DNA of 64,000 bases from contig CAVXYC010000018.1 in NCBI GenBank assembly GCA_963765765.1, positions 128,001 through 192,000 of the forward strand, given 5' to 3'. The notes under the pieces are model-generated. The model saw only the letters and a list, made by a program, of their open reading frames with translations, was not told the DNA's origin and searched no databases. Position 1 is the stretch's first letter. The number at the start of each line of letters is the position of its first letter. Both the position numbers and the translations under genes were made by a program. Of the stretch, positions 11,459 to 54,184 are shown one piece after another. The DNA comes from an uncultured Chloroflexia bacterium. Its GTDB lineage: Bacteria; Chloroflexota; UBA6077; JACCZL01.

Positions 11459-11503
11459 GGGCGGAGACGCCGGTATATTGTCAAACGCTCAACGGAGCGC
11501 ATT

Positions 11504-31634: not shown

Positions 31635-33201
31635 TCAGCCTAAGGACTGGCCCCTCCCGTTAGTGAAGAAATTCACGTCGTCAGGGTTGATGAGGTCGGG
31701 CACGGTCCAGCCGTTAGTGTCGTACTCCGCCATGCACTTCTCCGCGAAGGCCTTGAATGCGGCCGTCTGTCCACTCTGGGTCGCGCCCATCAAGGCAGCC
31801 AGGCGCGTGTCCTCGTGGCTACCGGCGTAGTTCATCTCGTACAGCTCATGGCGACCGCCGAACTCCGTGCCGACCGCGTCCCAGAGCAAGCGCATGAGCT
31901 TGATGCGGTCGATGGCCTCGATGCCGTTGCTGCCGCGCAGGTACTTATCCAGATAGGGCCGTAGCTCCTCGACGCCCCAGTCCTGGACATGCGAGTTCTG
32001 ATAGATGAGTCCGCTGGCCACCACCTGATAGATGATGTGCTTAATCTTGGCGTAGATCTCCGGCCCGTAGACGCGGACCGTGGAGCCGTACTCCTGGTTG
32101 GGCAGCAAGTAGCCATCGCCCCAAGGAGTGGCCGCCTGGATCTGCGCGTCACTGAGCGCCCAACAGATGTTGCGCCAGACCACCACCTCGCCGATCTGGG
32201 CTTGCACGCCGCGAAACTCGTTTGTGCCGGCGATCTCCGTCGCCTTGAGCAGCAGGCCCAGAATGAAATCCAGCTTGACCGCCAGGCGCGTGATGGCCTG
32301 AAAGGTGAAGCGACCCAGAAAGCCTGAGTGGTGATAGAAGGAGTTGGCCTTCTCGAGGTCGCCGTAAACGAACACGTTCTCCCACGGAACCAGCACGTTG
32401 TCGAACACCATGATGGCGTCGTTCTCATCCATGCGGCTGGACAGCGGATAGTCGAACGGGCTGCCGATGACTGAAGCTTGGAGCTCATACGACGGTCGGC
32501 AAATGAGCTTGCAGCCCGGCGAGTCCATATCTGCCAGGAAGACGAGCGCGAACTCCTTCTTCTTGAGCGGTATTCCTCGGTGCGCGATGAAGTTCAGATG
32601 CGTGAGGGCGGAGCCGGTCGCCACTACCTTGGCACCGCTCACAATCAGCCCTGCGTCCGTTTCCTTTTCCACGTGCACATACACGTCAGCCACTTCATCA
32701 GGCGGGCGATTGCGATCTACCGGAGGGATGAACGATGGCGTGGTTCATGAATGGCATCTGCTCCTGCGAGATGCGATACCAGCGCCGCGCGTTCTCCTCG
32801 TACGGGGCATAGAAATCGGCGATACCACCGAGCGTGGCCATAAAGGAGGCTTTGTAGTCGGGAGTGCGGCCCATCCAGCCGAAACCGATTCGCTGCCATG
32901 CGGCAATCGCGTCACGCGAGGCCACGAGGTCCTCGCGTGTCCTCGGGGCCTTGAAGAACGGATGGGTGAAACCACCGTTGCCCGTATCGGTCTCGGTGGT
33001 GAGCACGGATTGCTGAGCAGGGTCGTGGAGGGCGTCATAGAGCCGAGCGATCATGCGTGCTGAGTTCCTGAAGGCGGGGTGCGTTGTGACGTCCTTCACC
33101 TTCTCACCGTAGATCCAGATCTCGCGCCCGTCCCTGAGGCTCTCGAGATACTCGTCGCCGGTGAATGGTCGCGTCACCGTTCGCGTGGTATCCAGGGCCA
33201 C
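31635..33201 (-). CDS. hpaB: 4-hydroxyphenylacetate 3-monooxygenase oxygenase component family (frameshift ~32720)
   Basis: [49 protein letters not shown]. Confidence 0.85.
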
Positions 33202-35743: not shown

Positions 35744-38700
35744 TCACCGGAAACTCTTCGCCGGCGGGATGGCGGGCAGGCGAGCTTTGGCCGCTTCTTC
35801 TCGGGGATCGTTACCTGGGCGGTCGCGTGACTCCAATGTCGGCAAGTCGCCCTCGCGTAGCGCTTCTATGTCGTCCACCAGGATGTTGATATTGCCGTCG
35901 CGGCACTGAAGGCGGCCGCGGACGATGACCATGGTCTCGCCACGAATGATCGGTCGCTTGCGCTCATAGAGCGGCGGACGAATGATCGCGTTGGCCATAC
36001 CCGTCTCGTCCTCCACCAGCAAGAACGTGAACCCCTGAGCGGTGCCCGGTCGCTGGCGGCACACCACCAGCCCGGCCACGCGCACCGGCCAGCCATCCGG
36101 TAACGCCTCCAGCTCCTCCGCTGAGACAATGTCGGACGGCAGCCGTGCCCGCATGAGCCCCAGAGGATGGAGTGACGGCGAGAGCCCCAGCGTGTGGTAA
36201 TCCGCCACCATGCGCTCCCACGCGGTCATCTCTGGCCGCTCGATCATGTCCTGTTCCGTGCCGAAACCGAGAGGGAGGTTGCGGGGCGTGCCTGGGGAAG
36301 CTTCCTCGCCCCCTGGGAGAGGGTTGGGGTGAGAGAAGCTCGATTGCTTCTTTCGCGAGGCCCTCACCCCAGCCCTCTCCCAGGGGGCGAGGGAGCTCTT
36401 CCGACTTGGCTGCGGCTTCTTTTCCCGCCTCGATTGCTCCAGCAGCCCGTACTGCCACAACAGCTCACGACGGTTGAGCTGGAACGAGGGAAACGCGCCC
36501 AGCAGAATGAGGTTCTCCATGGCCGGGCGCTTGATGTCATACGCCGCGGTACGGTGAACGAAATCCTCGAGATCTCTGAACGGCCCGTTCCGCTCCCGTT
36601 CCGCTACGATCAACGCACTCATCTCTGAATTCAGGCTCCGCACCCGATCCAGCCCCAGGCGAACCGCGGACAACGTCGAGTGATGAGTCATGAGTGATGA
36701 GTCATGAGTACGGTCATCTTTACTCATCACCCATGACTCATCACTCGACACCTGGTATGTCACCGTGCACTTCACGCCGCTCCGATTGATGTCCACCGGC
36801 AGCACGTGCACGCCGTGGCGGCGGCCGTCACCCACCAGCACGTGCGGCGCGTAGAAACCCATGGGCTGGTTGTTGAACAGGGCGCAGAGATACTCCGCTG
36901 GGTAGTGGTAGCGCAGCCAGGCGGATTGGAACGCCAGGATGGCAAAGGCCGCCGCGTGGCTTTTGGGGAAGCCAAATTCGGAGAAGCCCACCAGCTTGTC
37001 GAACACCTTGGTGGCGGTGGCTTCGTCCACATCGCGCTGTATGGCACCGTTCAGGAACTCCTCACGGAACGCCTGCATCGCTTCGGCAGAGCGCCGTCGG
37101 CTCATCGCTCTACGCAGGCCATCCGCTTGCCCTGAGCTGAAACCGGCCAACTCCTCGGCCACCTGCATCACTTGGTCCTGGAAGAGCACCACGCCCAGGG
37201 TGTCGCGCAGCACCTCCTTTAGAGAAGGGTGGTCCACCTCGTAATCCGTGGCGCCCTGCCGCTGCCGCTCACGCTGGCGGACGTAGGGATTTACCGCGCC
37301 CCCCACGATGGGCCCGGGCCGAACGATGGCCACCTCGATAGCCAGGTCATCCAGGTTGCGCGGCTGGGTGCGCGGCAGCATCTGAATCTGCGCACGACTC
37401 TCTATCTGAAACAGCCCCACGGTATCGCCCGCGCAGATCTGGTCATAGATCTTGGGGTCGTCGTAATCGATCCGAGTGAGATCCTCCACTCGTCCCGTGT
37501 GTTGCCAGATGAGCTCCAGGCATTCCTCCACCAGTGAGAGCATGCCCAGCGCCAGGAAGTCCACCTTGATGAAACGCGCGTCATCGCACGAATCTTTGTC
37601 CCACTGGCAGATGTAGCGACCCTCCATGGCCGCCGGCTGCACGGGCACCAGCTCGATAATCGGGCGCGATGAGATGATCATCCCGCCCACGTGCTGACTC
37701 ATGTGGCGCGGAAAGCCGGCAATCTGCCGGGCCAGCTCAATGAGGTGACGCCAGATGGGTACGTGCACCAGGTCCTTGAGATCCGGCAGCCGCTCCATCT
37801 CCTGCTCCACGGTAGCCGCGGAGCCCCACTCGCTCAGCTTGGCCAGCTTGTCCAACGTGGGCGCCGGCAAGCCCAGCACCTTGCCCAGATCCCGCACGGC
37901 GCTGCGAATGTGATACGTGGCAAAGCTGCACACCAGCGCCGCGTGGTCCTTACCGTAGTGCTCGTACACCCGCAGGATGAGCTGCTCCCGAATGTCTCGC
38001 GCAAAGTCGAGATCGATATCCGGGACGGAGTGCATCGCATCGTTGAGAAAACGCCCTAGAAACAGATTGTTCTTGACCGGATCCACCTGAGAGAGGCCAA
38101 TCAGGTAACAGACGATGGAGCTCACCGAAGAGCCGCGTCCCCGCCCGCAAGGCAGATTTGATTTGCCGCGCGCGGTATTGGATCCACCGCGGACGTCATT
38201 GGCCACTTCTCTGGCCATCTGCAGCAGATCGCGATACACGAGGAAAAACCCGGACAGCCCGTGGCGCTCAATAAGCCCCAGCTCCTCACGCAGCCGCCCC
38301 ACCGCGTCAACTCGTCCCGATGATCCTTCCGGATATTTCTCCTCCAGCGCCGCCCAGCAGTACTCACTCAACACCGCGTCTGCATCCGTGGCCATATCCT
38401 GCAGCGCGCCGATATTGGTGCCCGGAGCTTCATCAGAGGAGGCGCTCCCTCGCCCTTTGGGAGAGGGTTGGGGTGAGGGCCCTACGGTGGGGGATATCGA
38501 GCTTCCCTCACCCCAACCCTCTCCCAGGGGGCGAGGGAGACGCCTCCCCACCCCAGCCCTCCCCGTGCGCGGGGAGGGGGCCGGATTCTCCAGATTTCTC
38601 TGTCACAGCCCCCTCCCGGAGCAAATTTTCTCCATATCCGGCCCCCTCCCCGCGCACGGGGAGGGCTGGGGTGGGGTCGTCCCCTCCGTCGCATCAGTCC

Positions 38701-39714
38701 CCTGAGTCCCAGAGGCCCCATACACCCCGCCCGGCCGCACATCCCTCCGAAACTCCGGAAACCGATACCCGAGATCCTCAGTCAGATCAAACTCGCTGCA
38801 ACGCTCGGCAATCTCGCGGGTAGATTGAATGGCCTGAGGCAAATCGTGGAACCGTGCCGCCATCTCCGCCGGGGTCTGCAGAAAGAACTCACTGTTTGGT
38901 CGACGGAGCTGATGGGAGCCTTCCAATGTAGAGCGATGCTTGATGGCCACCATGGCGTCCTGCAGCCGGTGTCGGGCGCGCTCGTGATAGTGCACGTTGC
39001 CCGTGGCCACGATGTCCACATTCAGTCGCTCAGCCAGCTCCACCAGGCGCAGCACGCGACGCTCATCGCCCTTCACCAGATGACGCTGCAGCTCCAGATA
39101 CAGCGCGTGCCCGCCAAACAGATCGCGCAGCCAGCGACCGGCCGCTTCCGCCTCCGTCAGCCGCCCTTCATCGATAAGCTGGCACAGTAGCCCGTGTCGA
39201 CAGCCAGACAGCGCGATCAATCCGCGCGTGCGCCCCTCCAGCGCCGCCGCCGGCAGACACGGCGCCTTCGCCCCTGGGAGAGGGTTGGTGAGGGCTCTTT
39301 CCACCGAACGAGGCTGATTGCTCTTCCCTCACGCCAACCCGCTCCCAGGGCGAGCATGGAGCCTGACACATTGCGACGCTCCGGGTCGCACGCATCCGTC
39401 AGCAGCCGACACAGGTTGGCGTAGCCCTCGGGATTCTCGGCCAGCAGCGTCAGGTGGCAGCGTCGACCGGATACGTCAAGCGTCAGCTCCGCCCCGGTGA
39501 TCGGCTGGATCTCCACAATCTTTGCGTACTGGGCAAAGGCCATGGCGCCGGCAAGGTTGTCATGGTCGGTAATCGCCAGCGCCCGGTAGTCGAATTCGCA
39601 GGCGCTATTCATCAGCTCCTCGATCTGCGACGCGCCGTCCAGAAACGAGTACGCCGTGTGGAGATGCAGCTCTACATAGTGATGAGTAGTGAGTGATGAG
39701 TGATGAGTCACCAT
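35744..39714 (-). CDS. dnaE2: error-prone DNA polymerase III alpha (DnaE2/ImuC), with palindromic inserts and frame breaks
   Basis: YVELHLHTAYSFLDGAS, AITDHD, GRGSSVSS, PDIDLDF, PRHMSQHVGG, QWDKD, FGFPKSHAAAF, RQRPGTA, C-terminal KSFR. Confidence 0.9.
36303..36394. repeat. CCCTCACCCCAACCCTCTCCC-type palindromic doublet inside dnaE2 (in frame)
   Basis: Encodes SLAPWERAGVRA...SHPNPLPGGEE. Confidence 0.8.
36675..36749. repeat. heptamer hairpin (GAGTGAT/GAGTCAT) inside dnaE2
   Basis: gtcgagtgatgagtcatg pairs perfectly with catgactcatcactcgac. Confidence 0.8.
38446..38730. repeat. compound palindromic insert in dnaE2
   Basis: Two adjacent doublets (gggagagggttggggtgaggg; ccctccccgtgcgcggggaggg) plus ~9-mer repeats. 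Confidence 0.8.
39268..39353. repeat. palindromic doublet in the dnaE2 PHP domain
   Basis: tcgcccctgggagagggttggtgaggg...ccctcacgccaacccgctcccagggcga. Confidence 0.7.
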
Positions 39715-39773
39715 CGGCAAGGATCTCTACTCATTACTCATGACTCATTACTCATGACCCATTACTCATCACT
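39678..39773. repeat. heptamer hairpin spanning the dnaE2 start
   Basis: (gtgatga)n ... (tcattac/tcatgac)n. Confidence 0.8.
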
Positions 39774-39779
39774 GCGTCT

Positions 39780-40061
39780 TTAGCGCTGGGCGTACCACTG
39801 GCCGTCCACCAGGTCTTTGTAGATCTCCAGGCGCTTTCCGCCTTCCAGCAGCACGCCAAAATACAGCCGGCTCACCGGCCGATTTCGCCACCACTCGTCA
39901 TCAATGCGCCAGCGCTCCAGCACTTCAGCCACTCGGCGCCGGCTTCGCTGCCAGGTCACCGTTATCGGCGCGCCATCCTGATGCTCCACGCGAATTGCGT
40001 TCGGCTCGTTCAGAAATTGCAGTCGACCAGTGCCCAGCGACGCTCGGGAAAGCGTGACCAC
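39780..40061 (-). CDS. small conserved protein between imuB and dnaE2 (DUF6504-like)
   Basis: RVAEVLERWRIDDEWW...RLYF...IYKD...WY; GGAGG RBS; overlaps the imuB end. Confidence 0.7.
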   Translation of the reverse strand: MVTLSRASLGTGRLQFLNEPNAIRVEHQDGAPITVTWQRSRRRVAEVLERWRIDDEWWRNRPVSRLYFGVLLEGGKRLEIYKDLVDGQWYAQR

Positions 40062-41385
40062 GGCTCCACCTCCATGATTCGATACAGTTGTCCGGCCGGG
40101 GCATCGCCAAAGCGCATGCGTAGCTGGCGCGCGGCCTCGGCCACACCCGTAAGCTGCCGGCGACGACCGCTCCACAGCTCCTCCTGCATCACGCTGGCGC
40201 CCTGCTTCAGCACCAGCGTTACTCCTAGCTCTGCCACCGCGCCCTCCGGATGCGCATTGCCCAGCCGCCCACGCAGATGCTTCAGCGCCGTAGCAGCGCT
40301 GGCCACCGGCTCGCGCAGCGTGAAGGTGCGTTCCCAGGACGAGTGAGCAGAGGTGAGAGGTCGGAGGTCAGAGGTCAGGAATCGTCTCCGATCACCTCGC
40401 TCATCACTGACCTCTGACCTCTGACCTCTGACCTCTCGTCCTTCGCCCCACGCCCGCAATGTGATCTGCTCCACAGAACGGCCTCGCGTCACCGGCAGAC
40501 TGAAGGCGCGCACCAGCACACGCTCTAGCCCGGCCAGCAGCCCTTGAGAGCTCGCCACGGCGGATGGAAAGCGCAGCCGCGCCTCGGCCTTCAGCGCGCG
40601 AGCTCGGGGCTGGAACGGACGATCGTCCTGCCCGCACGCCAGCCTCCAGGCACGGCCGCCGGCCAGCGCCAAACTGTGCCTGTACCGGCCCCAGCGGCAA
40701 CCCTGAGAGGGCGCCCAGCGTATGGAGCCCCTGCTGCTGAAAGCTGCGCGCAAGGTCCGGCGTGACCGGCAGCAGCACCGCCGGCAACGGCGCCAGAAAC
40801 GACTTCTCCGCCCTCGCGGGCACAATGCTCACCTGCCCCGGGCTGTGCCTGCCGCGCCGCCGCCTCCGCCACAAACTTCCCCCGTGCCACCCCCAGCCGC
40901 GCCCGGAACATCGAGGGCACGGAGCGGAGGATGATCTGGAGATCGCTTTGCGAAGTGAAGAGTGAAGAGTGAAGAGTGAAAGACGGCAGTGTGGGTGGCT
41001 CATTCTCCACTCTTAACGCTTCACTCTTCACTTCCTTCCCCAGCGCCTCCACATCACAGAACACCACCCCCAGCCCGGCCGGCTCCACCGGGCCAATGAC
41101 CTTCTCCAGGTCATCCAGCACCTGCTCAAACCGCTGGGCGTAGAGCACCGGATCAGGCGGCACCATCACCAGCTCACGACACAGCGCCAGCGCCTCCCGA
41201 GCCGGCATGCCCGGGCGCACACCCACGGCCGCGGCCTCAGGAGAGCACTCCAGAATCTCGGGCCGTTGCCCCACGCCGGAGGTGAGCGCCAACGGCGCGC
41301 CGTCCTGCGCGGCATTACGCATCGTCTCCACACGCAGCGCAAAATGCGGCAGCAGGAGGCAGCCGATCATTTGCCTGGCCATCAC
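40010..41385 (-). CDS. imuB: Y-family polymerase-like ImuB (catalytic acids not conserved; 2 frameshifts)
   Basis: CSPEAAAVGVRPGMPAREALALC, KFVAEAAA, FLAPLP, GLHTLGAL; lacks DMDAF and SIDE motifs; upstream of dnaE2. Confidence 0.8.
40349..40436. repeat. heptamer hairpin (AGAGGTC/TGACCTC) inside imuB
   Basis: (tgacctc)x4 opposite (agaggtc)n. Confidence 0.8.
40952..41034. repeat. heptamer hairpin (GTGAAGA/TCTTCAC) inside imuB
   Basis: (gtgaaga)x3 opposite cttcactcttcacttc. Confidence 0.8.
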
Positions 41386-41422
41386 TCGTCCCCTCCAGCC
41401 GGGCCCTGGGGCCGCGGGCGTC

Positions 41423-41935
41423 CTACCCGTCCCCGGCTTTCCGGTGGGACGGGCGTCCCTGCCCGTCGCGGCCTGGAGGGCCGCCCCTCGAACACAGCGA
41501 GCGGTGACGGGGAGTACTGGAGGCGGGCTCGACGCCCGCGACGGGCAGGGACGCCCATCCCACCGGTGGAAAAGGAACGCTCCCCGGCCCTGCGGTACAG
41601 CCGTCCATCACTCGTCTCCCCGGAGCGTTCGTCCCGGCCGCCATGGACCCGCGCGAAGACCGCACCCGCACGCCGGCGGCAGAACGCCGCCCCGCGCTGA
41701 GCTGGGTGTCCACCGCGGCGTACAGTCCGCTGGCAGAAAGCCCCAGCGCCAGGCCGCGCATCACCGCGCCGGCCATCGTGATGCCGTCATCCGCCGCGAT
41801 GAGGCTGAGCGCCAGGCCCAATGCCAGCGCCATCGGAGCCGCCCACCGCGCGCTCAGCCCCGTACCCTTGGCCACCTCCACCAGCCCAATGATCACCGGT
41901 ACCACCAGCACACCGAAGAATTCCGTTGTATCCAC
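41423..41935 (-). CDS. phage holin-like membrane protein with repeat-derived C-terminal extension
   Basis: VPVIIGLVEVAK..GL.ARWAAPMALALG...GLALGLSASGLY pattern; about 3 TM segments. Confidence 0.7.
   Translation of the reverse strand: MDTTEFFGVLVVPVIIGLVEVAKGTGLSARWAAPMALALGLALSLIAADDGITMAGAVMRGLALGLSASGLYAAVDTQLSAGRRSAAGVRVRSSRGSMAAGTNAPGRRVMDGCTAGPGSVPFPPVGWASLPVAGVEPASSTPRHRSLCSRGGPPGRDGQGRPSHRKAGDG
41441..41566. repeat. REP-like doublet GTGGGACGGGCGTCCCTGCCCGTC
   Basis: ccggtgggacgggcgtccctgcccgtcgcg pairs with cgcgacgggcagggacgcccatcccaccgg. Confidence 0.8.
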
Positions 41936-41952
41936 AACCGTCCCCCTGACGG

Positions 41953-42051
41953 GAGTTAAGAGTGAAAAGTTAAGAGTGAAATTGAGATTGTCGAAATCAA
42001 ATCAGCTTCCCCAGTGCCATTCTTAACTCTTAACTTTTTCACTCTTAACTC
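41953..42051. repeat. heptamer hairpin (GTTAAGA/TCTTAAC), intergenic
   Basis: gagttaagagtgaaaa pairs with ttttcactcttaactc. Confidence 0.8.
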
Positions 42052-42058
42052 AACCTCC

Positions 42059-43879
42059 TCACGCCTCCAACAACCTCAAGCTGCCTCTCAACTGCGTTCC
42101 CATCCGTTGGCTCATCTTGGCCCCCTTCTCCTCGTAGTCCAGCAGCCACACATTCCGACTCACCCCGTCCAGATCCACATACGTCAGCGGCCCCGCCTGA
42201 CCGGCAATGCCCCACAACGCCGTGCTGAGCTGCGCGCTTGTCTGCGAGCTATTGCTCCCATCCAGCAGCACCATCGGCATCTGCCCGCTCCCCTCGATGA
42301 GGCAATCGAACTCCCACACGCGCTTGACGCCCGGCGCCGGCCGACAGCGCATCTCGAGCGAGAAGAACCGCAGCGGCGTGGCCCCGCCAGCAGGGCCCGT
42401 CAGGATCACTCGGAACGCGATGAGCTTGCCCGCCACCGCCGCGCCAAACGTGAACGTCGCCGTGGTGCTACTCGTCGTGCTGTTCGTGCCCAGGCTCGTC
42501 CACGCGCCGGTGTCCTCCAGGCGGTACTGCACCTGCACGCTCTGACCCGCCAGCAGCGCCGCGTGGTTGATCGTGACGCTCCGAAACACTTTCGTCACGC
42601 CCGGCAGCCGCGCATCGATCAGCCCCGTCTCCAGCGTCGCCGCCGCCTGATGGAGGTCGCTCCGAACCCTGAGCATGAACCAGTTGGTCGTACTGAGCTG
42701 GGCAATCACGTAGAGATCGCCACCAAACCACGCCAGGCTCTGCGCGCGACCATTGCCGGCCATCGCGGCCACGGCCACCGGCTCGCTCCATCCGACTGAT
42801 CCGCCTGAGGCGGAGGCCGCTCCGTCGTAGCGCTTCAGGCCCACGCCGGCCCCGTCCGAGAACGCCATCCAGAAGCCCCCGCGACCGCTTGCCGTGGCGC
42901 CCAGCGCTCCGCCCGCGTACGGGATCGTCAGTGGATGCGGGATGGGCTCAACGTCGCCATTCCGCCAGCGGTACACCACCGGGTAGGCCGATGAGCCGCG
43001 CTGGCCCACCAGGTAGCTGGCATCTCCCAGCACGCTCCCACCCAGCAGGCTCACGCCATCGATCGTCGTCGTAAACGCCCATTGCTCGGAGGCCGCGTTG
43101 TCCTTCAGGGTGTACACGCCCGTCCGCGCGCCGCTGCCCATCTGTGTCCCGCAGAACACCGCCGTTGTCCCAATCACCTGCGGCTGCACGCGACAGCTCG
43201 GCTCGTTGAGCTGGTAGCGCAAGGCGGAGAGCGTTGCCCCGTCCGTGTAATAGACTCGGCACCCGTCCGGCGCCTCACCCACCAGGTACAGGTAGGCCAC
43301 CGAGCCCCGATAGAACACGCCCATGCTGTAACACGCGGTGACCGGCGGCGGCAGCGTCACAAAGACGTCGGTGTAGGTCGCTCCATCCCATCTGGCAATG
43401 CTGCCGTTGCCCGTTTTGCCAACGTAGAGCTTGCCCTGATACTCGGCAAAGCTCGCCGCTCGACCGCCCGTGGCCAGCGTAAACGGCGCCCCCAGCGACG
43501 CCCCATCCCAGCTCACCACCGCGCCGCCGTTGGCCCCGTGGTAGTACTTGCCGAGTGCCGCGATGGATGGTCCGGGCGAGAGGTCATTGACGCCGGCGTT
43601 CACCTGGGCGGCATGCGGCCCCTGCCGAGCCGCGCCGGGCTCGGTCCATGGATCCAGGCCCGGACCAAACCGGTATCGCCCGGGCTCGTCCTCATCGTGC
43701 CGGGTGAAGCCCTCACCGCCGCTCCAATCGTCGATGAGCACAGCCATTTCGTTCCGCAGGTCCCCGTAGCCGCGATCCCCCGAAGACGTCTTCGGCGCAA
43801 ACGGGTCGGCCAACGTCCGCCGATAGCTCTGCACATCCAGCAGCAGCCCCTGCCCGGCCAGCATCACGTGATAAGTCAT
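42059..43879 (-). CDS. putative virion structural protein (beta-rich; tail nozzle/stabilization-like)
   Basis: 607 aa; DWSGGEG motif, repeated WDG/YDG strand units, LETGLIDA...KVFRSV; lies between capsid and holin genes. Confidence 0.5.
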   Translation of the reverse strand: MTYHVMLAGQGLLLDVQSYRRTLADPFAPKTSSGDRGYGDLRNEMAVLIDDWSGGEGFTRHDEDEPGRYRFGPGLDPWTEPGAARQGPHAAQVNAGVNDLSPGPSIAALGKYYHGANGGAVVSWDGASLGAPFTLATGGRAASFAEYQGKLYVGKTGNGSIARWDGATYTDVFVTLPPPVTACYSMGVFYRGSVAYLYLVGEAPDGCRVYYTDGATLSALRYQLNEPSCRVQPQVIGTTAVFCGTQMGSGARTGVYTLKDNAASEQWAFTTTIDGVSLLGGSVLGDASYLVGQRGSSAYPVVYRWRNGDVEPIPHPLTIPYAGGALGATASGRGGFWMAFSDGAGVGLKRYDGAASASGGSVGWSEPVAVAAMAGNGRAQSLAWFGGDLYVIAQLSTTNWFMLRVRSDLHQAAATLETGLIDARLPGVTKVFRSVTINHAALLAGQSVQVQYRLEDTGAWTSLGTNSTTSSTTATFTFGAAVAGKLIAFRVILTGPAGGATPLRFFSLEMRCRPAPGVKRVWEFDCLIEGSGQMPMVLLDGSNSSQTSAQLSTALWGIAGQAGPLTYVDLDGVSRNVWLLDYEEKGAKMSQRMGTQLRGSLRLLEA

Positions 43880-43884
43880 AGCGA

Positions 43885-43985
43885 GAGTGATGAGTAATGA
43901 GTCATGGTGACGAGTAGATGAGTGATGAGTCATAAGTAATGAGTGGGGAGGGATGCGTCCGCGTCCCGCTGCTGACTACTCATTC
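43885..43985. repeat. heptamer repeat tract (GTGATGA/GTAATGA/GTCATGA)
   Basis: About 8 degenerate units at the gene junction with a short complementary arm tactcattc. Confidence 0.7.
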
Positions 43986-44766
43986 CTTTCTGGGCATTTC
44001 CGAAGGCCGCCATCAGGCCGGGGTCGCGCAGGAGACTGAACTGCCAGAACGCCTCGTCCGGGCTATCCAGGATGAAGTACACCGCGCCTTCCAGGCCGGG
44101 CGTCTCCGCCAGATCGCGGCATACGCGATCGAACGGCACGCGGTTGAACTCGGTCACCAGCAGCGGCCGCTGGATGCCCGCCATCTCCAGCATCTCTCGG
44201 CAGCGTCGGTGCAGCCCCCAGCCATCCGCGTAGGCGTGCACGTCCACCACGTCATAGAGCGGAATCACCGGCTCCAGCTCACGCCAGTACTGGATGGCGC
44301 GCTCGCTGTTCTCGCCCGTCCAGCCGCTCCACGGAGCCGGCAGATGCAGGCGATCCTGCGGTCGCAGCGCGCGATAGACCTCCGCAAACGCGCTGAGCCA
44401 GGTGCGATGACGAGCGTAATCGTCGTGCCCGTTCTCCGCCGCGCCCGGCCAGTTCATCTCATTGGCCGGGATCACCTCACCGGTGCTGGACTCAAAGAAC
44501 ACCGTGGCGCGGCGAGCACATTCCACCGCCCAGGCAGCCGGGTCGCGTTGCGGAATATCGCGCGCGTAGCAGCGCAGCAGTGGCACGCTGCCGCGCGCTC
44601 GAAGTCGGGCCGCCAGCGTGCTGTGCTGGCCCAGCCCCTCCCACTCCTGTATGTCATGCGCCAGAAACAGCGTGTGCCGCGGCCGCAGCCGCGCCAACGC
44701 CCCCAGCGTCGGCCGATCATACGCCCCGGCCACATTAGGGGTTTGAATACCTAAGAGATGCTGCAT
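43930..44766 (-). CDS. putative clan GH-A glycoside hydrolase (TIM barrel)
   Basis: ANEMN (acid/base), DVVDVHAY and LLVTEFN (nucleophile) in GH-A order. Confidence 0.6.
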   Translation of the reverse strand: MQHLLGIQTPNVAGAYDRPTLGALARLRPRHTLFLAHDIQEWEGLGQHSTLAARLRARGSVPLLRCYARDIPQRDPAAWAVECARRATVFFESSTGEVIPANEMNWPGAAENGHDDYARHRTWLSAFAEVYRALRPQDRLHLPAPWSGWTGENSERAIQYWRELEPVIPLYDVVDVHAYADGWGLHRRCREMLEMAGIQRPLLVTEFNRVPFDRVCRDLAETPGLEGAVYFILDSPDEAFWQFSLLRDPGLMAAFGNAQKGMSSQQRDADASLPTHYL

Positions 44767-44781
44767 AAATCCCTTCCAGAC

Positions 44782-44878
44782 GGCCCCCTCCCCGCGCACG
44801 GGGAGGCATGGGTGGGGTCGTCCCTCGCTCGCTTATAGCTAGGAGACCCCCTCAGTCCCCCCATGCGCGGGGGGAAGG
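44782..44878. repeat. CCCCCTCCCCGCGCACGGGGAGG palindromic element
   Basis: Near-identical to the arm at ~38640-38685 within dnaE2. Confidence 0.7.
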
Positions 44879-44891
44879 CGGTTATTGAGCG

Positions 44892-45758
44892 CTAGGCGTT
44901 ATTGATTCCTTTGATTCGGGCCAGGGCGGAGTCGCGCAGGATGGCGATGCTCACGTACCAGCGGATGCGCACGCGGGTGGCGTCCTTGGTCTGGAGCTGG
45001 CCCACGTCCAGCACCTCCAGGCCGCCGTTCTGCAGACCCACCACGCCGTCACCTTCATCGAAGTGGATGGCGTAGATGCTGGAGGTGGCGTTGTCCGTGC
45101 CCTGCGTCTCCGCATCAGGCTGGAAATCGCTAATCTCCACGGGCACGCCGTCGTACAGCATGACCTGTCGACCAAACGCGTTCTCACCGCGCTCCACGTA
45201 GTGCGCGCTGGCCTGCAGCAAGCTCTTCAGCTTGCGACGCGTCCGTCGACTCATCAACAGCAGCGTGGGCTTGCCGCCCAGAATCAGGTCCATCACCTGA
45301 TCCAGCAGCGCCAGCGTCAGCGGCCCGCCGTTGGTCGCCACGCTGATCGTCTGACCCGCGGCCACCTGCTTGCGAATGCCGTCGAACGCGTTCGCATCCA
45401 CGCCGGTATCGCCGGTGATGAACGTGTCCTCAAACTTGCGGGCCACGCTCTTGGCCTTGAGCTGAGTCTGGATAGCCTGCTGATTCTGGAGACTGGAGCG
45501 CGTGCGCTGGATGAAGTTATCCACGTCCGCGTCGCCACCCAGAATCGCCAGACTGGCCGTCTTGTTGGAGAACGTGCTGGTGGCCTCCGTCCAGGTGCCA
45601 TCCACCGCGTAGAACGCCGCGCCACCCAGCACATTCTCCTGGTTGTATTTGTAAAACTGGACACAATGTGCTCGTCCTGACGTGGACCGACCGAAACGAG
45701 GCGGCCTCGAAGGGGGTCTGAGAGGCCTTGGGACAGCCTCAACGCTCTGGCAAATCAC
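44892..45758 (-). CDS. phage major capsid protein (epsilon15 gp7/BPP-1-like HK97 fold), N-terminus apparently replaced
   Basis: YKYNQE, LAILGGDADVDNFIQ, FDGIRK, SSIYAIHF, RVRIRWYVSIA...ALARIKGI. Confidence 0.8.
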   Translation of the reverse strand: MICQSVEAVPRPLRPPSRPPRFGRSTSGRAHCVQFYKYNQENVLGGAAFYAVDGTWTEATSTFSNKTASLAILGGDADVDNFIQRTRSSLQNQQAIQTQLKAKSVARKFEDTFITGDTGVDANAFDGIRKQVAAGQTISVATNGGPLTLALLDQVMDLILGGKPTLLLMSRRTRRKLKSLLQASAHYVERGENAFGRQVMLYDGVPVEISDFQPDAETQGTDNATSSIYAIHFDEGDGVVGLQNGGLEVLDVGQLQTKDATRVRIRWYVSIAILRDSALARIKGINNA

Positions 45759-45779
45759 TCCGACTCCTCACACTCTTCA

Positions 45780-45810
45780 TCACTTATAGAACTTATGTTC
45801 TATTTCTAGA
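45780..45810 (-). promoter_or_regulatory. LexA (SOS) box AGAAC-N4-GTTCT with adjacent -10-like TATAAG
   Basis: atagaacttatgttctat palindrome at 45786-45803; GAGGAG RBS and GTG start at 45758 lie ~30 bp downstream. Confidence 0.8.
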
Positions 45811-45836
45811 GTAGTCCTTAGTGGTCCCTTGATGCG

Positions 45837-46170
45837 TCATGAGGCGCACCAATCCGGGCATTCTGGCGACGGAAATAACCCCTGTCGCAGATCGGAAGTT
45901 ATGGGTAGTGAGGCGGGTGGCTGGCGCCGCGACGCTAGCGCCGGTTCTCGAGGAAGCTCGATCAAGCCGCGACGAAGAGCGACCGCGAGGGCCGCTTGCG
46001 CCGTGTGGCAACCCAGTCGCTTCATTGCGGAGCGGACGTGCGTCCGAACCGTGTGCTCGCTCAGGACGAGCTGGTCAGCGATCGCCCGTCGCGACTTGCC
46101 AAGAGCCAGGAGGCTGAGCACTTCTCGCTCACGTGGCCGCAGGTACGGCTCGTTGTTACCGGCTCGACCC
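45837..46170 (-). CDS. stand-alone LuxR-type HTH protein (start uncertain)
   Basis: LRPREREVLSLLALGKSRRAIADQLVLSEHTVRTHVRSAMKRLG. Confidence 0.7.
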
Positions 46171-46188
46171 AGAATGATTCCAGGTTCC

Positions 46189-46971
46189 TCAGGGCAACTC
46201 GAGGACGGGCTGGAAGTGCTTTTGCTCGCACCACGAGCTGCCTAAGAGCTGAGAGGTCCGCTCGTGCAGAATCTCTTCGTGAGCCCCTGCTGGCATGATG
46301 CAGAAAAGCCTGCGTGAGCCGCGACAAAACTGGACAGCCCAGACTCGATTGACATTCAGTCGTTCACGGATCTCCGCAATCCGACGGCGAGCTTGCACCT
46401 CGGCCGATGCCCTCCGGTCGACATGCTGATACACCACGAGACTTTGGCCACGCTGCAGGAACGGCAGTAGCTCATCGAAGAACGCGTATTTAGGCCCGCG
46501 CGCGCGGAACGGCCCCGTGGAACCGACCTGGAGCCCGTTATCGGGATCGACGAACACAAGCTCACACCCCTGAGTGGCCGCCATAGCGTCCTGGACCCAC
46601 GTGTGCCTATAAATCCGGCGCTCGCCAGGCACCATATCCCGAAATGAGAGTTGTTCGGCGAAGTATCGAGTCGAGCTCGGGAAGAGATTAAGCTCGTGGA
46701 TCGCAGAGACACGACGCTCTCCTCGCGTAATCAGTGTCGCGAGTCGCTCGTACAAGTCAGGGTCGCAACTCCTGAACCGAGCATTTAAGAGATTCTCACC
46801 GAGCAGGTAGGAAACATGCTTCCCGTCATCATTGTGGGACTCGTCGGGCACCAAGTACCAAACGATCCCCAAATCGAGAAAGGGCTCCGCTCGCGGCTCG
46901 ACCCCGCAGAGCCACCGAAGAAGTCCGAACTTTCCGAAGTCGCCCACGTCACCCGCGTATCGGTCCTGCAC
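46189..46971 (-). CDS. conserved hypothetical protein, possible SAM-methyltransferase-like fold
   Basis: MQDRYAGDVGDFGKFGLLR, LVFVDPDNGL, SLVVYQH. Confidence 0.6.
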   Translation of the reverse strand: MQDRYAGDVGDFGKFGLLRWLCGVEPRAEPFLDLGIVWYLVPDESHNDDGKHVSYLLGENLLNARFRSCDPDLYERLATLITRGERRVSAIHELNLFPSSTRYFAEQLSFRDMVPGERRIYRHTWVQDAMAATQGCELVFVDPDNGLQVGSTGPFRARGPKYAFFDELLPFLQRGQSLVVYQHVDRRASAEVQARRRIAEIRERLNVNRVWAVQFCRGSRRLFCIMPAGAHEEILHERTSQLLGSSWCEQKHFQPVLELP

Positions 46972-47568: not shown

Positions 47569-48222
47569 CGGTTCCTCCTTCTTCGCGGTTACAGGACGAG
47601 CAGGTCTGCGATGCGTCCTACCCCGACCGTCTGCATTCCGCCGCCTTCCGACCCCGAACTCGACTGTCCGGAGATCCCCCACCGTGGCTTCGCGGTTAGG
47701 CCACCCGACCCGCACCAATTGACGCCGACCGGGACAGGGATCTAGCTGCGAGCGCTAGGCGCCTCAAATACCTGTATGTACTCGAGCTCCACGTGCACCA
47801 GTGAATCAACACCACGGTACCACACCACTAAACATAATGAAAGATGTCACTATAGGGCCCCGCGGCTATGATCCCGAGTTGATGAGCAAAGCTGTGTCCC
47901 TGCCACGGGCTCGTGTCCTGCGGTGCGAGTTAGCAGGTCCACAATCGTCGCTTGATAGGGCACGCCGTGCCGCAGCACGTAGATAATGGGGCCCAGCACT
48001 CTGTCGACTGCGTCGCCAGTTGGGGCCGCCGTGGCGGTACCGGATGGCGTTGATTGCGTCTTTCGGGTCGGCGCCCGCGCAGCCCCGGTCTGCTGGACTC
48101 ATGCCTCGTCAGCATATCCTCGGGATCTACGGTTCCGGGCGGTACATTCGTTGCTGGAATGCTCGCGCACGACTATGATCGCGGTACATGCTGGAAGCCA
48201 TGCACCGGGGAACTGAGTACGG

Positions 48223-49195
48223 ATGACAGCGACCGAGAATGGCGACAAAGAGGGCTCGGCGCCTTACGATGGGTTGCCCGGAGTTACCTTGCATCAGCTT
48301 CGCATCTTCCGGGCAATCGTCAACGAGGGCGGTTTTGCGCGGGCCGCTGAGGCGCTTTTTCCTCCGAGGCCACCGTTTCGAATCAGATCAAGACGCTGGA
48401 GCAGGTTTTGCAGGCGCGTCTGTTTGAGCGGGCTCCCGGCCAACGCAAAGTCCAGCTTACGGCCGCTGGACAAATGTTCTTCCAGACGAGTACCGAGGAA
48501 TGTTTGACGTGCTCCGGCAGGGCTTTGACCGGATCACCTCGCTAACCAACGGTCAACACGCCTCGGTCAGTGTCGGCACAGCATCGTTCTTTGGCGTCCA
48601 CGTATTGCCACGACTGTGCGAGTCATTTAGGCGTGAGCATCCAAGCGTCATGGTGCGCGCCGTTTTGGAGTCCAGGCGAAGCGTTCTCGACCAGCTTCGA
48701 CACCGGCATCTGGATCTTGCCGTGGTTATCGGCGGAGTGGAGGACCCGGAGCTCGTGTGTAATTCGCTAATGCGCTTTGAGATGGTGCTCGTAGCGGCTA
48801 CCGGCCATCCGCTGGCCGGGCGACGCTCCGTATCTCTCCAGGACCTAAAAGCGGAGACGTGGATTCTCGGCGACGAGACGAGCGACCTCGCGGAAGTGGC
48901 TCGAGCAGCTTGCCGCTGAGGCCCACCTGCGATTGAACGTCGCCCTGGAAGCGAATAACGTCGACGTTCGACTGCAAGCGGTCAGAGCCCGGCCTGGGCA
49001 TCGCCCCACTTGGTCACTCCGCGGTGATCAAGGCCGTTGAGTCCGGAGAGCTCGAGCTTCTGAACGCCGAGAATTTTCCCTTCTACGAGGAATGGTGCTC
49101 TGGTTTCTTCGCGAGACCCACTGTCCCCAACAGCACAAACTTTCAAAGAGCACATCTTGCACCATTGCAACGATGAGCGGTCCGTCAGGCCCTGA
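48223..49195 (+). CDS. LysR family transcriptional regulator (multiple frameshifts)
   Basis: TLHQLRIFRAIVNEGGFARAAEAL; VSNQIKTLE; LDLAVV; HPLAGRRSVSLQDL. Confidence 0.85.
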
Positions 49196-49339
49196 ATTAC
49201 TTCATCGACCGGAAGCAATGCGTGGACATCGCGCTGCAAGGACAGCGTGAGAGACAGGATCTCCATGGCGCCCGGAAAGTCCGGCCTACGACGCCGTCAC
49301 ACCCAACGCCCACCCGCTCGATCTTGATAAGGCCCGTTC

Positions 49340-51056
49340 ACTACTCCAGCAGGCGGGAGTTCCCAACATCGATTTGACTTCGTCTATAACGTAGATCCGA
49401 CATCGGTCAGTTTGCCCAGATTTACCAGCAAAATCTCGCCAGCATCGGGGTCAAGATGCATATCGTGCCGCTCGAGAGCGCGTCGGTTGCGGCCGCGGCG
49501 CAGGGGCGCACGTACAGTGGGATCTACGGCGGCTCGAATCTTCAGCACCCAATTCTCGGAGCCCAGCACGGTCCTGCAGCGCAGCGTATCTTGTGGTCCC
49601 GCAGAACAACCGATCGGGATTCAAAGACGATCGCTATAACGCTCTGGTGGACCAGCTAGCCACTGAGCCTAATCTCGCGAAGCAAAAAGAGCCTGTGTCC
49701 TATCGCAAACGCCATGATCCGCGATGAGGCGTTCACCTGCGCCGTGGCAGTTGCGCAAACTATCTAATGACGCAACCAAAGGTCCACGACCCCACCTGGG
49801 GGTGCGGTGTGAACTCGAGATTGAAGCTCACCGATACGTGGGTGAGCTAGCCATCGGCTCCCGGCGGCCGGCCCTAGCCCGAGCCCATCTGTGACTCGCT
49901 TTATCGTTCATCGCTTCTGGCAGGCCTCCTGTCGCTGTTCAACTCGAGCGTGGGCGTCTTCTTGCTCCTGCGACTGCTTCGGGTGATCCACGCTGATGCT
50001 GGCCGGCACGGAAGCGTCAAGTCCCGAGGCCGTGACGGCAAATACGCCGCGACCTGGGACTGGAGGAGCCATTGCCCGTCCAGTCTGGGCTCTGGTTGAG
50101 CCGCGTCCTGCGAGGCGATCTCGGGACATCCGCGCAGAGCAATTTCCCGGTGTCGCGCCTGATCATTGAGCGTGCGCCCGCTACCATGGAGCTCACCTTC
50201 CCGGGCTTCATCCTGTCTGCCCTGATCGGCCTGGCGCTCGGAATCAAGGCGGTGGTCAAACAGCACAGCGCCATCGACTGGGCCATCCCTACGTTCATGG
50301 GATTCGCAATCGCAACCCCGAAGTTTTGGCTGGGCATTCTCTGCATCATGCTCTTTGCGCTGGTGTTGGGGTGGCTCCCGGCGGGCGGCCACGGTGACTT
50401 CACTCGTGATCCGGTGCAGGCGCTCAAGTTGCTGTTGCTGCCAGCCGCCTGCCTGGCGCTCCATCCTGGGGTGGGGTTGTCGAGCTTGGTAAAAGCTTCC
50501 ATGCTAGAAGTGCTCTATGAGGACTACATTCGTACCGTCCGTGCAAAGGGTGTGGCCAATGGTAGCGTTATTCTGGGCCACATGCTACGCCTCGCTCCGT
50601 CTCAATCATTACGGCGCTTGGTCCCGAGTTCGGTCGGGTATTGGGCGGAACTGTGATCATTGAGAACGTCTTGATTAGGCCCGGGGATGGGCACGTCGAT
50701 GGTTCACGCCATCCGCAACCGCGACTATGTGGAGGCCGCTCGCGCGATTGGCGCGTCAAGTGCCCGCATCATGTGGCTCCACGTGCTGCCGAACGCCGTG
50801 GCCCTGTTCTGACCCAGTTGAGCCTCGTCATGGGGTTCGCCGTACTGGCCGAATCAGAGCTTTCCTTTCTGGGGCTAGGAACACATCCGCCGGACCCAGC
50901 CTGGGATCCCATGCTCAATGAAAGCCGCAACCACATCCGACAGGCACCGTCGTTCGGGATATGGCCTGCCTGGCGCTGGCTCTCCTGCCGCTTGGTCTGA
51001 ACTACTTCTCGGACGCGCTGCGAGATGCTCTCGATCCGCAGCGCGTGAACGGCTAG
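49340..51056 (+). pseudogene. decayed Dpp/Opp ABC operon (SBP C-terminal fragment, DppB, DppC fragment)
   Basis: AQIYQQNLASIGVK; GDLGTS, PKFWLG, SMLEVLYEDYIRTVRAKG; DYVEAARAIG, AESELSFLGLG, with large deletions. Confidence 0.65.
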
Positions 51057-51281
51057 GAGTCAATGAGGCTACTGCTACTCGGTGCGGCCGGGCAATGATC
51101 ACCGGCCCGCAACAATTACTTCGGAATTTGGCTATTGCCCAGGGCCAACGCCGCTGGTAGTTTGGACCCACGGGCGCGGACCGTCCGCGGAAGCAGTCGA
51201 ACCCCGGCGGTACAGCCACGTGGCCACGCGACGTACTGCGTAGGAGTACGGTCGCATCTTCAAATGCATGAGGAGTCATTC

Positions 51282-52345
51282 ATGACAACTGAGGCCCCAA
51301 GCCACGGCGGCAGCATCGCAAGCAAGACCGGGATTTTGATCTCATCAGATAGTCACGTCATCGAGCCGCACGACCTGTGGACGAAGGCGCTGGGAGGGCG
51401 GTTCGGTAATCGAGCCCCCGCGTTCGAGCCTTTGAAAAAGGGCGAGGGGTCCACTTCCACGCCGGTGGTCAGGATCCGCATGCTCGCGTCAAGGAGATGG
51501 CTCAGGACGGCGTGAGCGCCGAGGTGCTGTACCCAACCGTGGTACTGGGCATGTTTGGGGAAGATGACGTAGAGCTCCAGGAAGCATGTTTTCAGGTCTA
51601 CAACGATTGGCTCATGGAATATTGCGCGGTTGCTCCAGAGCGACTCGTGGGCATTGCAGCGATCTCGACCTACAACATTGACCATGCCGTTCAGGAGCTA
51701 AGGCGCTGCCACGCAGCGGCCTCCGAGGGGGTTTGATCTGGGAGGCGCCAGCATCCCAGCCTGCCGTTCACATCGGAGCACTACGAGCGGCTCTGGGCAG
51801 TGGCTGCCGATTTGCAAATGCCGATCACGATGCATATCTTGACGGGTCACGGATACATGAAGCAGCCGCGCACGGGGCTCGAGATCCATCGCGGCAGTGT
51901 GACACTGAAGACGCTCGAGGCACTCGAATGCCGTGTTTGACTTCATCTTCTACGGCGCCCTGGATCGTCACCCCGGTCTCAAGCTGGTGATGGTTGAGCA
52001 CGAGATCGGGTGGCTCCCATTTCTGGTCCAACAAATGGATTACTACGCGCAGCGCCACGCCAGACGGCACGGTTGGGCGTTGTCGAAGCTACCGGGCGCA
52101 TATGTCAATGATCAAGTGTACGCCACGTTCTTCAACGATCCCATTGGCACGTTCACACTTCAACGGTGGGAGGCGACAACTGTATGTGGTCCAGTGACTG
52201 CCCACACGAGAACTCCACCTGGCCGCATTCTCTGGACGTCATCGCACGCGACCTGGGTGATTTGCCGGAAAGCACGCTCCATAAACTGGTGCGGGAGAAC
52301 GTAGACCGGCTGTACAACCTCCGCGTCCCCGAACCGATCGCCTGA
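51282..52345 (+). CDS. amidohydrolase family protein (frameshifted)
   Basis: ISSDSHVIEP, DGVSAEVLYPT, YNDWL, VEHEIGW, MWSSD.PH. Confidence 0.8.
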
Positions 52346-52375
52346 AGCCCCTCATGATGTGGAGATACGCGATGC

Positions 52376-53151: not shown

Positions 53152-53309
53152 TGCGGCGTTTGGACCCATTACTGATACTTAGTCTGAACATGGGCGGGCG
53201 TGACCCGGCGCCAGCGCCCAACGCCGGCCTTCCCGACAGCCATATTACCGGTCCGTTGGCTCAGCAGCCGTGTCTAACGCGCTACGAGCTTGATTGGAAA
53301 CTGTGACTT

Positions 53310-54161: not shown

Positions 54162-54184
54162 CCTTCACAAGACGGAGGACTGAC

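Follow-up and report, generated by a model that had tools for sequence, protein, structure and literature searches.

A probable degraded copy of a LexA-headed phage module joined to a mutasome in an uncultured Chloroflexia bacterium

Why would genes for a phage capsid, a tail protein and a holin stand in front of an error-prone polymerase cassette, behind what looks like a single LexA operator? The question is raised by a stretch of 64,000 nucleotides from an uncultured soil Chloroflexia bacterium (assembly GCA_963765765.1, contig CAVXYC010000018.1, positions 128,001 to 192,000), which we call the window. On its minus strand, seven co-oriented units lie behind a perfect AGAAC-N4-GTTCT palindrome: a major capsid protein, a GH-A hydrolase, a protein modelled as a podovirus tail nozzle, a holin, imuB, a standalone ImuB-C (DUF6504) and dnaE2. 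An earlier note, made from the letters alone, proposed a domesticated phage module under host LexA, joined to the mutasome, with a decayed prophage as the alternative. We compared the window with the rest of its genome and with its relatives. The stretch is probably a degraded copy of an operon type that is common to this Chloroflexota order, in which a LexA-headed phage module is followed by a mutasome. The first proposal is thus the better reading at the level of the lineage, but the copy in this genome is decayed. The alternative is closer for this genome, with its truncated capsid gene, its broken imuB and dnaE2 and no portal gene found, but not for the lineage.

The box stands at the head of the string. 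As read on the minus strand, that of the genes, it is AGAACATAAGTTCT, with ATAGAACATAAGTTCTATAAG spanning 45786-45806; direct reading gives TATAAG after the box, then GAGGAG, and then the GTG start at 45758. The perfect palindrome beside a TATAAG and a ribosome-binding site (RBS) is present just as it had been described. The core palindrome GAAC-N4-GTTC is by itself at chance, with one copy in the window for 0.84 expected and at least one copy in 55 of 100 shuffles; the weight of the box therefore comes from its location. Only the extended 10-base form AGAAC-N4-GTTCT (a 14-mer) is enriched genome-wide, with 11 copies for about 3.0 expected. In this genome, TAGAACGAGTGTTCTA lies 31 nt before lexA (an open reading frame, ORF, of 213 aa with LexA_DNA_bind, PF01726, and Peptidase_S24, PF00717), directly after TTGACA-17-TATCAT. 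The perfect 14-mer lies 28 nt upstream of ruvC, and recA (contig C29) carries AGAACGTTTGTGCT, with one mismatch, overlapping TATAAT. Because of this lexA autoregulation and the placement at recA and ruvC, we take the 14-mer to be, very likely, the LexA operator of this organism, which agrees with the first assignment of the box as a predicted LexA site. Between the box and imuB the window has no GAAC-N4-GTTC with up to one mismatch, and the statement that no SOS box directly precedes imuB holds.

The phage part of the string is recognisable from profiles and from predicted folds. The capsid protein scores 173.7 bits against NF045672 (cut-off 75) and 36 bits against PF17236 (cut-off 24.1). The capsid profile is matched only from position 42-49 (phrog_212 from 49). 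Residues 36-288 are homologous, the first 35 are unrelated and match nothing, and the protein lacks 43 conserved N-terminal residues that are kept in seven of seven full-length relatives (alignment A1). DNA homology with the sister species begins at 45651. The next protein, of 289 aa, has no Pfam, PHROG or NCBIfam match. Its AlphaFold2 model (mean pLDDT 84.5) has alternating strands and helices, its best Foldseek matches are PslG (3.2e-9) and then GH53, GH5 and GH26 enzymes, and an Atlas lead gave the same direction, clan GH-A. In enzymes of this clan, strand 4 of the (beta/alpha)8 fold carries Asn-Glu and strand 7 carries Glu; here, N102-E103 and E206 are invariant across eight sequences (alignment A4). 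By sequence, the only relatives found for the protein are one in the sister genome and a few unnamed or uncharacterised database proteins. Since it occupies the slot that holds an Amidase_2 endolysin in one relative (G020), this modelled hydrolase is a probable lysin or depolymerase.

The third protein also gave no Pfam, PHROG or NCBIfam match, and its 16 homologues are all hypothetical or without a name. Its longest ORF (42059-43933, 624 aa) starts inside a repeat, and we used the 606-aa protein, aligned with 20 homologues. The AlphaFold2 model (mean pLDDT 84.6) matches, in the PDB, the nozzles of PhiM1 (3.9e-12) and P22 (gp10, 4.9e-12) as well as Pa223, Sf6 and T7 gp12, with E from 3.9e-12 to 1e-10 and TM from 0.41 to 0.58 for PhiM1, P22, Pa223 and Sf6; in BFVD it matches P22 Gp10-like viral models, down to 5e-25. 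By its modelled fold it is a podovirus tail nozzle. The homology of the holin is confined to 41684-41935, where it is 90% identical over 84 residues to the 112-aa holin of the sister species; the remainder of the ORF reads through an inserted element. The holins of relatives have 86-124 aa, with membrane segments judged by eye. The 212-nt palindromic insertion that lengthens the holin ORF also parts it from imuB, and replaces a 4-nt overlap between the two genes in the sister species. Pfam searches of the 68 other ORFs of the window gave no integrase, terminase, portal or repressor, and tblastn with the terminase, portal and adaptor of relatives gave no match on its contig, in keeping with what had been noted from the letters.

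The mutasome genes follow. The first imuB ORF matches PF00817 (IMS, 2.3e-15). Against the intact 444-aa gene of the sister species (alignment A2), imuB has +1 insertions near 40842 and 40665, plus two repeat-element insertions. The small ImuB-C-like protein is 62% identical to its orthologue in the sister species, which itself aligns with the C-terminus of a long ImuB from another relative (G009; E 0.002). For dnaE2, NF004225 matches the last ORF (1.1e-238) and the PHP domain the first two. A palindromic repeat insertion of 85-86 nt at about 39220-39377 causes a frameshift, and an in-frame TGA at 38603 lies within a second insertion, which is a double repeat unit. The repeat at 38440-38545 has 101 blastn matches, spread over 17 contigs, and 49 of these matches span 60% or more of the repeat; further copies lie at about 39220-39377, 38389-38730 and 36309-36397 in dnaE2 and at 40380-40470 and 40950-41060 in imuB. 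The sister species has different repeat elements at the same imuB and dnaE2 sites, in frame; its dnaE2 is open for at least 946 aa, and its mutasome frames are intact. The seven-gene string first proposed is therefore real, but imuB and dnaE2 are not single frames, the holin ORF is over-long and the capsid gene is 5'-truncated (table 1).

Table 1. Features of the operon and elements within it, in window coordinates.
Feature	Position	Strand	Details
LexA-type operator AGAAC-N4-GTTCT	45788..45801	.	30 nt upstream of first ORF; extended form ATAGAAC-N4-GTTCTAT
Major capsid protein, epsilon15 gp7 / SU10 type (HK97 fold), 5'-truncated	44892-45758	-	288 aa; phrog_212 1.5e-62
Clan GH-A (TIM-barrel) glycoside hydrolase	43930-44799	-	289 aa; fold match
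Podovirus tail nozzle (P22 gp10 / T7 gp12-like)	42059-43879	-	606 aa from conserved Met; fold match
Inverted-repeat element between nozzle and holin	41945..42058	.	about 110 nt; direct reading; 2 blastn matches in genome
Holin	41423-41935	-	170-aa ORF; phrog_1299 3.2e-15, residues 5-78
Palindromic insertion at holin/imuB junction	41394..41605	.	212 nt; absent from sister species (blastn gap)
imuB (predicted inactive Y-family polymerase, iPolY), apparent pseudogene	40010-41385	-	ORFs 40591-41385 and 40010-40825, overlapping
Standalone ImuB-C-like protein (DUF6504)	39780-40175	-	131 aa; PF20114 0.0031, 18.2 bits, under cut-off 24.2
dnaE2 (error-prone Pol III alpha), three ORFs	35744-39720	-	39217-39720, 38603-39304, 35744-38551
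GC-rich palindromic dispersed repeat (like a miniature inverted-repeat transposable element)	38440..38545	.	translates as PLGEGWGEG...SPQPSPKGRGS; about 100 nt

The same genes recur, in part or in full, across the order. In what follows, G numbers denote genomes of relatives and of the order (G001 is the sister species), L numbers denote loci, and f1, f2, f4 and f6 are host families. The nozzle is present in 21 of 41 relatives. Of the 39 genomes of the order, 20 have it, among them 8 of the 9 high-quality ones; both counts include one partial match in G006, a genome on which nothing else here depends. All frames are open, and most genomes have one copy. We took 16 loci around the nozzle from relatives and mapped the window proteins onto them. 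The sister species has the full string, capsid-GH-nozzle-holin-imuB-DUF6504-dnaE2, and capsid-nozzle-holin-imuB occurs in G005, G023 and G029. G016 has a holin, then 4.7 kb, then imuB with a perfect box directly before it. Eight loci have capsid and/or nozzle with a holin and no mutasome found behind (L023, L027, L028, L030, L031, L033, L034 and L035). Upstream of the capsid, relatives encode an SPP1-type portal (PF05133) and an SU10 adaptor (PF24175), and G020 also the large terminase (TerL). Portal, adaptor, capsid and nozzle thus stand in one string in relatives, which is not so in the genome of the window. In G029 a 586-aa ORF without family match occupies the terminase position, and its homologue was found by tblastn. 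Annotation of 128 ORFs from seven of the loci of relatives with Pfam and PHROGs placed host genes directly beside the module and showed no integrase, repressor or replication genes.

The box mostly accompanies the module. In 12 of the 16 loci, it lies 11-206 nt before the first module gene, which may be TerL, portal, adaptor, nozzle or a 342-aa ORF. Of these 12 boxes, eight are perfect and four have one mismatch. The other four loci are that of G016, with its box before imuB, two that end at or inside the capsid gene, and L030, which has no box. Over the 259 kb of all 16 loci there are 10 perfect boxes, where 0.44 would be expected at the rate of the window's own genome. TerL is present and open in five of five genomes tested, apart from the capsid operon. 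A perfect box, AGAACATTTGTTCT, precedes TerL in G014 (where the portal follows), in G015 and in one of two G023 loci; the flanks examined before TerL of G005, G011 and the other G023 locus have none. In G002, box-portal-adaptor-capsid lies on one contig and box-nozzle-imuA-imuB-dnaE2 on another. The sister species has a perfect box 15 nt before the portal (box end at 5190, ATG at 5206), on a contig that ends just after the portal. At least some of what looks like nested 5' truncation is therefore a cluster that has been split up into several units, each headed by a LexA box. G023 has two TerL-portal loci (contigs C73 and C54; L161 and L164/L166), one of them with stops inside the portal match.

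Beyond the order, tblastn confirmed 463 relatives of the capsid in species-representative genomes, almost all of them labelled Chloroflexota (Thermomicrobiales, Sphaerobacteraceae, Dehalococcoidia, Chloroflexia). The best 80 of these 463 loci hold 24 perfect boxes in 1.06 Mb, for 1.8 expected, often 0.5-1.5 kb before the capsid, and many of these 80 have a second gene order, capsid-portal-adaptor-TerL. Many metagenome-assembled genomes (MAGs) labelled Thermomicrobiales or Chloroflexia (L069, L074, L093, L106 and others) have it in the form box, about 1 kb, capsid-portal-adaptor-TerL ... nozzle, and a complete chromosome of 3.6 Mb is among them.

Whether the mutasome has a box of its own goes with what stands in front of it. 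We searched the 41 relatives with the ImuB alignment and mapped 30 loci, setting aside five lower-scoring Y-family loci (L153-L157). Of the 24 ImuB-(ImuB-C)-DnaE2 loci, 16 carry a box of their own just upstream of imuB without any phage gene, seven have a nozzle or holin directly upstream and no box between, one has neither, and none has both. The seven fused loci (G000, G001, G002, G005, G009, G023 and G029) belong to families f1, f4 and f6. In one of the 24 (L150), the box lies about 800 nt upstream. The order Y-family protein, ImuB-C and DnaE2 recurs in 23 further loci of relatives. Searching ten relatives with DUF6504 (PF20114) gave 0/5 and 3/5 weak matches, and the G020 match is not a mutasome. 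The linkage between phage genes and mutasome is thus not unique to the window, as it would be under the condition that had been named against the hybrid operon. The fused loci also lack a box of their own at imuB, and in the sister species the holin stop and the imuB start overlap by 4 nt, as they do in G029 (L032, ORFs 11049-11348 and 11345-11683), both of which fit the suggestion that imuB has no promoter of its own.

The fused mutasomes are not all of one kind. G009 and G002 have a box and the nozzle, followed by an ImuA/RecA-like gene (L025 7999-8937 and L026 11419-12522, respectively), a long ImuB (673 aa in L025) and DnaE2. The ImuA-like genes match NF033429 at 1.8e-7 and 3.4e-9, under the cut-off. 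With a cassette that looks like the canonical ImuA-ImuB-DnaE2 type in one genus and the split-ImuB type in others, two mutasome architectures stand behind phage genes. The fused string of G005 contains another perfect LexA box, with TTGACG-17-GAGAAT, immediately in front of dnaE2 (L024, 16136), and a 587-aa ORF without family lies between imuB and dnaE2. In the ImuB tree, 15 proteins of the box type form one tight clade (99/99), and the long branches of the fused types fall outside it.

The phage genes are under purifying selection. Nei-Gojobori estimates between the window and the sister species gave ratios of nonsynonymous to synonymous substitution (dN/dS) of 0.09 for the capsid core (dS 0.56), 0.11 for the holin, 0.20 for the hydrolase and 0.25 for the nozzle, compared with 0.11-0.26 for the imuB pieces, 0.37 for DUF6504 and 0.12-0.14 for the dnaE2 pieces. 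Neutral evolution of the phage-like genes, which would have spoken against a retained module, is not what these values (0.09-0.25) indicate. The phage gene trees mostly track host families. Capsid and nozzle sequences group by family (three of three for f6, two of two for f2, with few taxa and no host tree), and the six f1 nozzle rows fall on one side of a branch with 96% support. The G013 row of the capsid tree was mis-extracted (branch length 10) and is to be ignored. Across families, the capsid is 60-91% identical.

The copy in the window has nevertheless decayed. As had been proposed, we searched the rest of its genome: tblastn found one copy of TerL on contig C33, with a frame change near residue 390, and the adaptor on C17, split between frames, but neither a portal nor the capsid N-terminus in a genome estimated to be 91.8% complete. 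A PF03354 search of the same genome gave no terminase match; given the tblastn match on C33, this blank was a limit of sensitivity. With the portal not found, the capsid truncated and both TerL and the adaptor frameshifted, a complete set of particle genes is not present, and this genome is unlikely to form particles. The hydrolase, the nozzle, ImuB-C and the homologous part of the holin are still open. We judge the decay to be real, and are least sure of it for the two single-base insertions in imuB. The dnaE2 breaks are insertions of 85 nt and 225 nt, not single-base slips, and the median 6-kb bin of the genome is 70% covered by ORFs of at least 200 aa, which speaks against global assembly error. 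If the breaks are real, the genome probably has no working mutasome. The low pairwise dN/dS implies, from sequence comparison, that the inactivation was recent.

These observations suggest how the intact form would work. A LexA operator beside a promoter would head a podovirus-derived virion and lysis module, in the order (TerL)-portal-adaptor-capsid-(lysin)-nozzle-holin. In several lineages, this module would run, with no second operator, into iPolY/ImuB, ImuB-C and DnaE2, or into an ImuA-like protein, ImuB and DnaE2. Upon DNA damage, active RecA would trigger the self-cleavage of LexA, and a single transcript would then yield the virion and lysis genes followed, by read-through and translational coupling, by the error-prone polymerase genes. 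In the genome of the window, a deletion would have joined box, RBS and GTG to codon 44 of the capsid gene, and the locus would most likely do no more than express its leftover lysis and tail genes on SOS induction. The box, the identities of the genes, their synteny, the alternation between a separate box and upstream phage genes, and the purifying selection are observed. The binding of LexA, the co-transcription and the role of the particles are what we infer here. For the last, the candidates are GTA-like particles (those of gene transfer agents, GTAs), SOS-timed lysis and the mere supply of an SOS promoter.

Several results weigh against this interpretation. The 8-base core GAAC-N4-GTTC is not enriched in the 6.49-Mb genome (83 copies, where base composition predicts about 81), some of the 11 perfect sites lie in front of genes without an obvious SOS role (a GT9 transferase, an amidohydrolase, an alpha-amylase), and a consensus scan at the box of the window gave no sigma-70-like promoter. 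The similarity between this box and the portal-proximal box of the sister species extends over only 18 nt (E 1.6); their orthology is not demonstrable, and the idea that a portal start was fused to the capsid thus stays unproven. A blastn search with 45654-46000 against the loci of relatives and the window's own genome matched only itself. In L030, there is no box in the 4.4 kb upstream of the capsid, and the Dehalococcoidia-labelled L062, L064 and L065, which have holin-ImuB-DUF6504-DnaE2, have no box of this form. The fused-type ImuBs are not one clade, and the (unrooted) tree needs two changes. Between G009 and G002, where the nozzle stands alone before the mutasome, its dN/dS is 0.73, and constraint is therefore not on every retained piece. 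As to the decay, the imuB frameshifts could be assembly errors, as the window also has split HpaB, FMN_dh, LysR and ABC permease genes, and for none of the contig pieces (78-681 nt) from four soil runs could it be shown that they span the frameshift sites in imuB or the junction in the capsid gene.

A bolder version of our interpretation is possible rather than probable. It holds that a vertically inherited, sometimes multi-locus, LexA-operated podovirus gene set still builds particles on DNA damage, GTA-like or killer particles of a new short-tailed type, that several lineages wired an error-prone polymerase cassette into the same transcript, so that lysis and particle release would be induced together with mutagenic repair, and that the window is a recently inactivated copy.

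An ordinary prophage remnant is the best of the other explanations, and we consider it unlikely. An old podophage would have decayed beside the mutasome, and box and genes would have been kept, without any function of their own, only for the SOS promoter that they supply to the mutasome and because an unrepressed holin would be lethal to the cell. The copy in the window is plainly decaying, which is what the alternative of the earlier note describes, and the weak constraint on the lone nozzle of G009 and G002 points the same way. The gene that comes first behind the box varies by genome (TerL, portal, adaptor, capsid or nozzle), but the genes that seem lost are often elsewhere, open and with a box of their own, like TerL in the five genomes tested and the portal-adaptor-capsid string on the other contig of G002. 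Promoter donation cannot explain retention in the eight loci that keep box, module and holin with no mutasome found behind. Neither does it fit the conservation of the capsid across families and its low dN/dS: neutral pieces should not outlast order-level divergence while tracking host families.

It is less plausible again that the genes belong to an active or recently active temperate podophage or satellite, with host LexA as its repressor, the mutasome or DnaE-type polymerase as cargo or replication module, and the window as a dead copy. Direct LexA control of phage genes has a reported precedent in GIL01 (PMC4551915, PMC6182141), PHROGs families of phage DnaE-like and Y-family polymerases are matched (phrog_405 at 1.3e-182, and phrog_1268), and the long branches of the fused-type ImuBs outside the tight box-type clade, like the many confirmed capsid relatives across Chloroflexota with their second gene order, also speak for it. 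However, the seven annotated loci gave no recognisable integrase, repressor, primase, helicase or small terminase. The module mostly occurs in one copy, its genes are spread over two or more separate loci in G002, G014 and G023, and the capsid and nozzle trees follow host families. Each examined genome has one mutasome, fused or with its own box, never both.

We give hardly any credence to an operon that is intact and working here, with the imuB and dnaE2 breaks as assembly errors and the short capsid as a functional new protein: the low dN/dS of every piece would fit an inactivation that is recent or not real, and there are the further split genes and reads that did not settle the frameshift sites, but in the capsid gene 130 nt have been replaced by other sequence, which is not an indel, assembly would not be expected of an HK97-fold capsid protein that lacks its N-arm, dnaE2 is broken by long insertions (one of which holds an in-frame stop), and no portal was found in a genome put at 91.8% completeness whose TerL and adaptor are frameshifted as well. 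The nanocompartment once suggested, or an encapsulin, is rejected as unlikely, as the TerL, portal, adaptor and nozzle kept by relatives are those of a DNA-packaging virion.

Several known systems resemble parts of this locus. The split-ImuB mutasome of the 'DnaE2X' class combines iPolY, a standalone ImuB-C and DnaE2, has RecA in place of ImuA, and is reported often to include or follow lexA (PMC6511836, PMC12926913). The window has a Y-family homologue, a small ImuB-C-like protein and DnaE2, and no imuA at its locus, like that class. It differs in that the cassette, both in the window and in six relatives, stands behind a holin or nozzle and lacks a separate operator, and in that imuB and dnaE2 of the window are broken. 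The words 'capsid' and 'holin' are absent from the main texts of these two reports, and 'LexA' and 'Chloroflexota' from that of the latter. A full-text literature search gave no paper joining imuB, dnaE2 and capsid, and nothing on a phage-mutasome fusion.

Like GTAs of the RcGTA type, the module consists of chromosomal phage structural genes with no integration or replication genes, is probably inherited for the most part vertically, is predicted to be under a host regulator, occurs at more than one locus in some genomes and is linked to lysis genes. To our knowledge, known GTAs are siphovirus-like. The module is, by its genes, podovirus-like, with an SU10/epsilon15 capsid and a P22 gp10-like nozzle. 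It also differs from GTAs in having predicted LexA boxes directly at its operons and a mutasome fused downstream, and the genome of the window has no complete set. LexA and DNA repair are reported to be tied to GTAs (PMC9632790, PMC6473078). As in LexA-repressed phages, LexA boxes lie at phage genes, and damage would switch these on directly; here, however, the boxes head structural and lysis genes, and no lysogeny or replication genes are recognisable. CTXphi is a temperate phage of this kind. In GIL01, LexA reportedly acts at an early or lysogenic promoter of a complete, mobile phage (PMC4551915, PMC6182141). Hallmarks of integrated prophages (integrase, repressor, replication genes) are absent from the Pfam and PHROGs results for the window and the seven loci; no search for att repeats was made. 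SOS-induced tailocins and colicin-type lysis operons are damage-inducible and phage-derived or lysis-linked, and their expression kills the producer. Tailocins retain tails and lose heads, unlike the module, which retains head, portal, terminase and short tail and has polymerase genes.

If our reading of the lineage is right, two usually separate SOS outputs, error-prone repair and phage-type particles with lysis, are joined: both would depend on a single operator and, in some places, on the same translationally coupled transcript. The few domesticated virion systems known would also gain a short-tailed candidate driven by LexA boxes, from a soil phylum in which little genetics has been done. 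The objects for a test are the sister species, with its intact operon, and the Sphaerobacter- and Nitrolancea-labelled MAGs with capsid relatives (L060, L109); cultured members of these two genera may be usable. Taken alone, the window is of more modest value, as a decaying copy that could serve as a natural knock-out for comparison.

Some observations concern the surroundings of the operon. Directly upstream of the box (45837-46971) are a 94-aa ORF that holds a LuxR/GerE helix-turn-helix and nothing else, and a 260-aa ORF without a family match. These two ORFs and the GSDH gene of the window match nothing in any of the 16 loci of relatives. Further on, 48001-54000 has 0% of its length in ORFs of at least 200 aa, the lowest of 1065 six-kb bins. 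It holds pieces of a LysR regulator (48223-48919), pieces of an ABC permease (50072-51000) and other short ORFs, and looks like a local pseudogene cluster adjoining the operon. HpaB (4-hydroxyphenylacetate 3-hydroxylase, 31635-33201) and an FMN-dependent dehydrogenase (54158-55305) are each two adjacent ORFs. Elsewhere in the genome, perfect AGAAC-N4-GTTCT sites lie before a Rad52/22-family gene (C10:202694), before small unnamed ORFs 4.3 kb on (C10:206994), at C7:155734, with no ORF of at least 80 aa nearby, and before an N6/N4 DNA methylase (C23:192802). These sites on C10, C7 and C23 may mark further SOS-controlled mobile or phage-derived genes.

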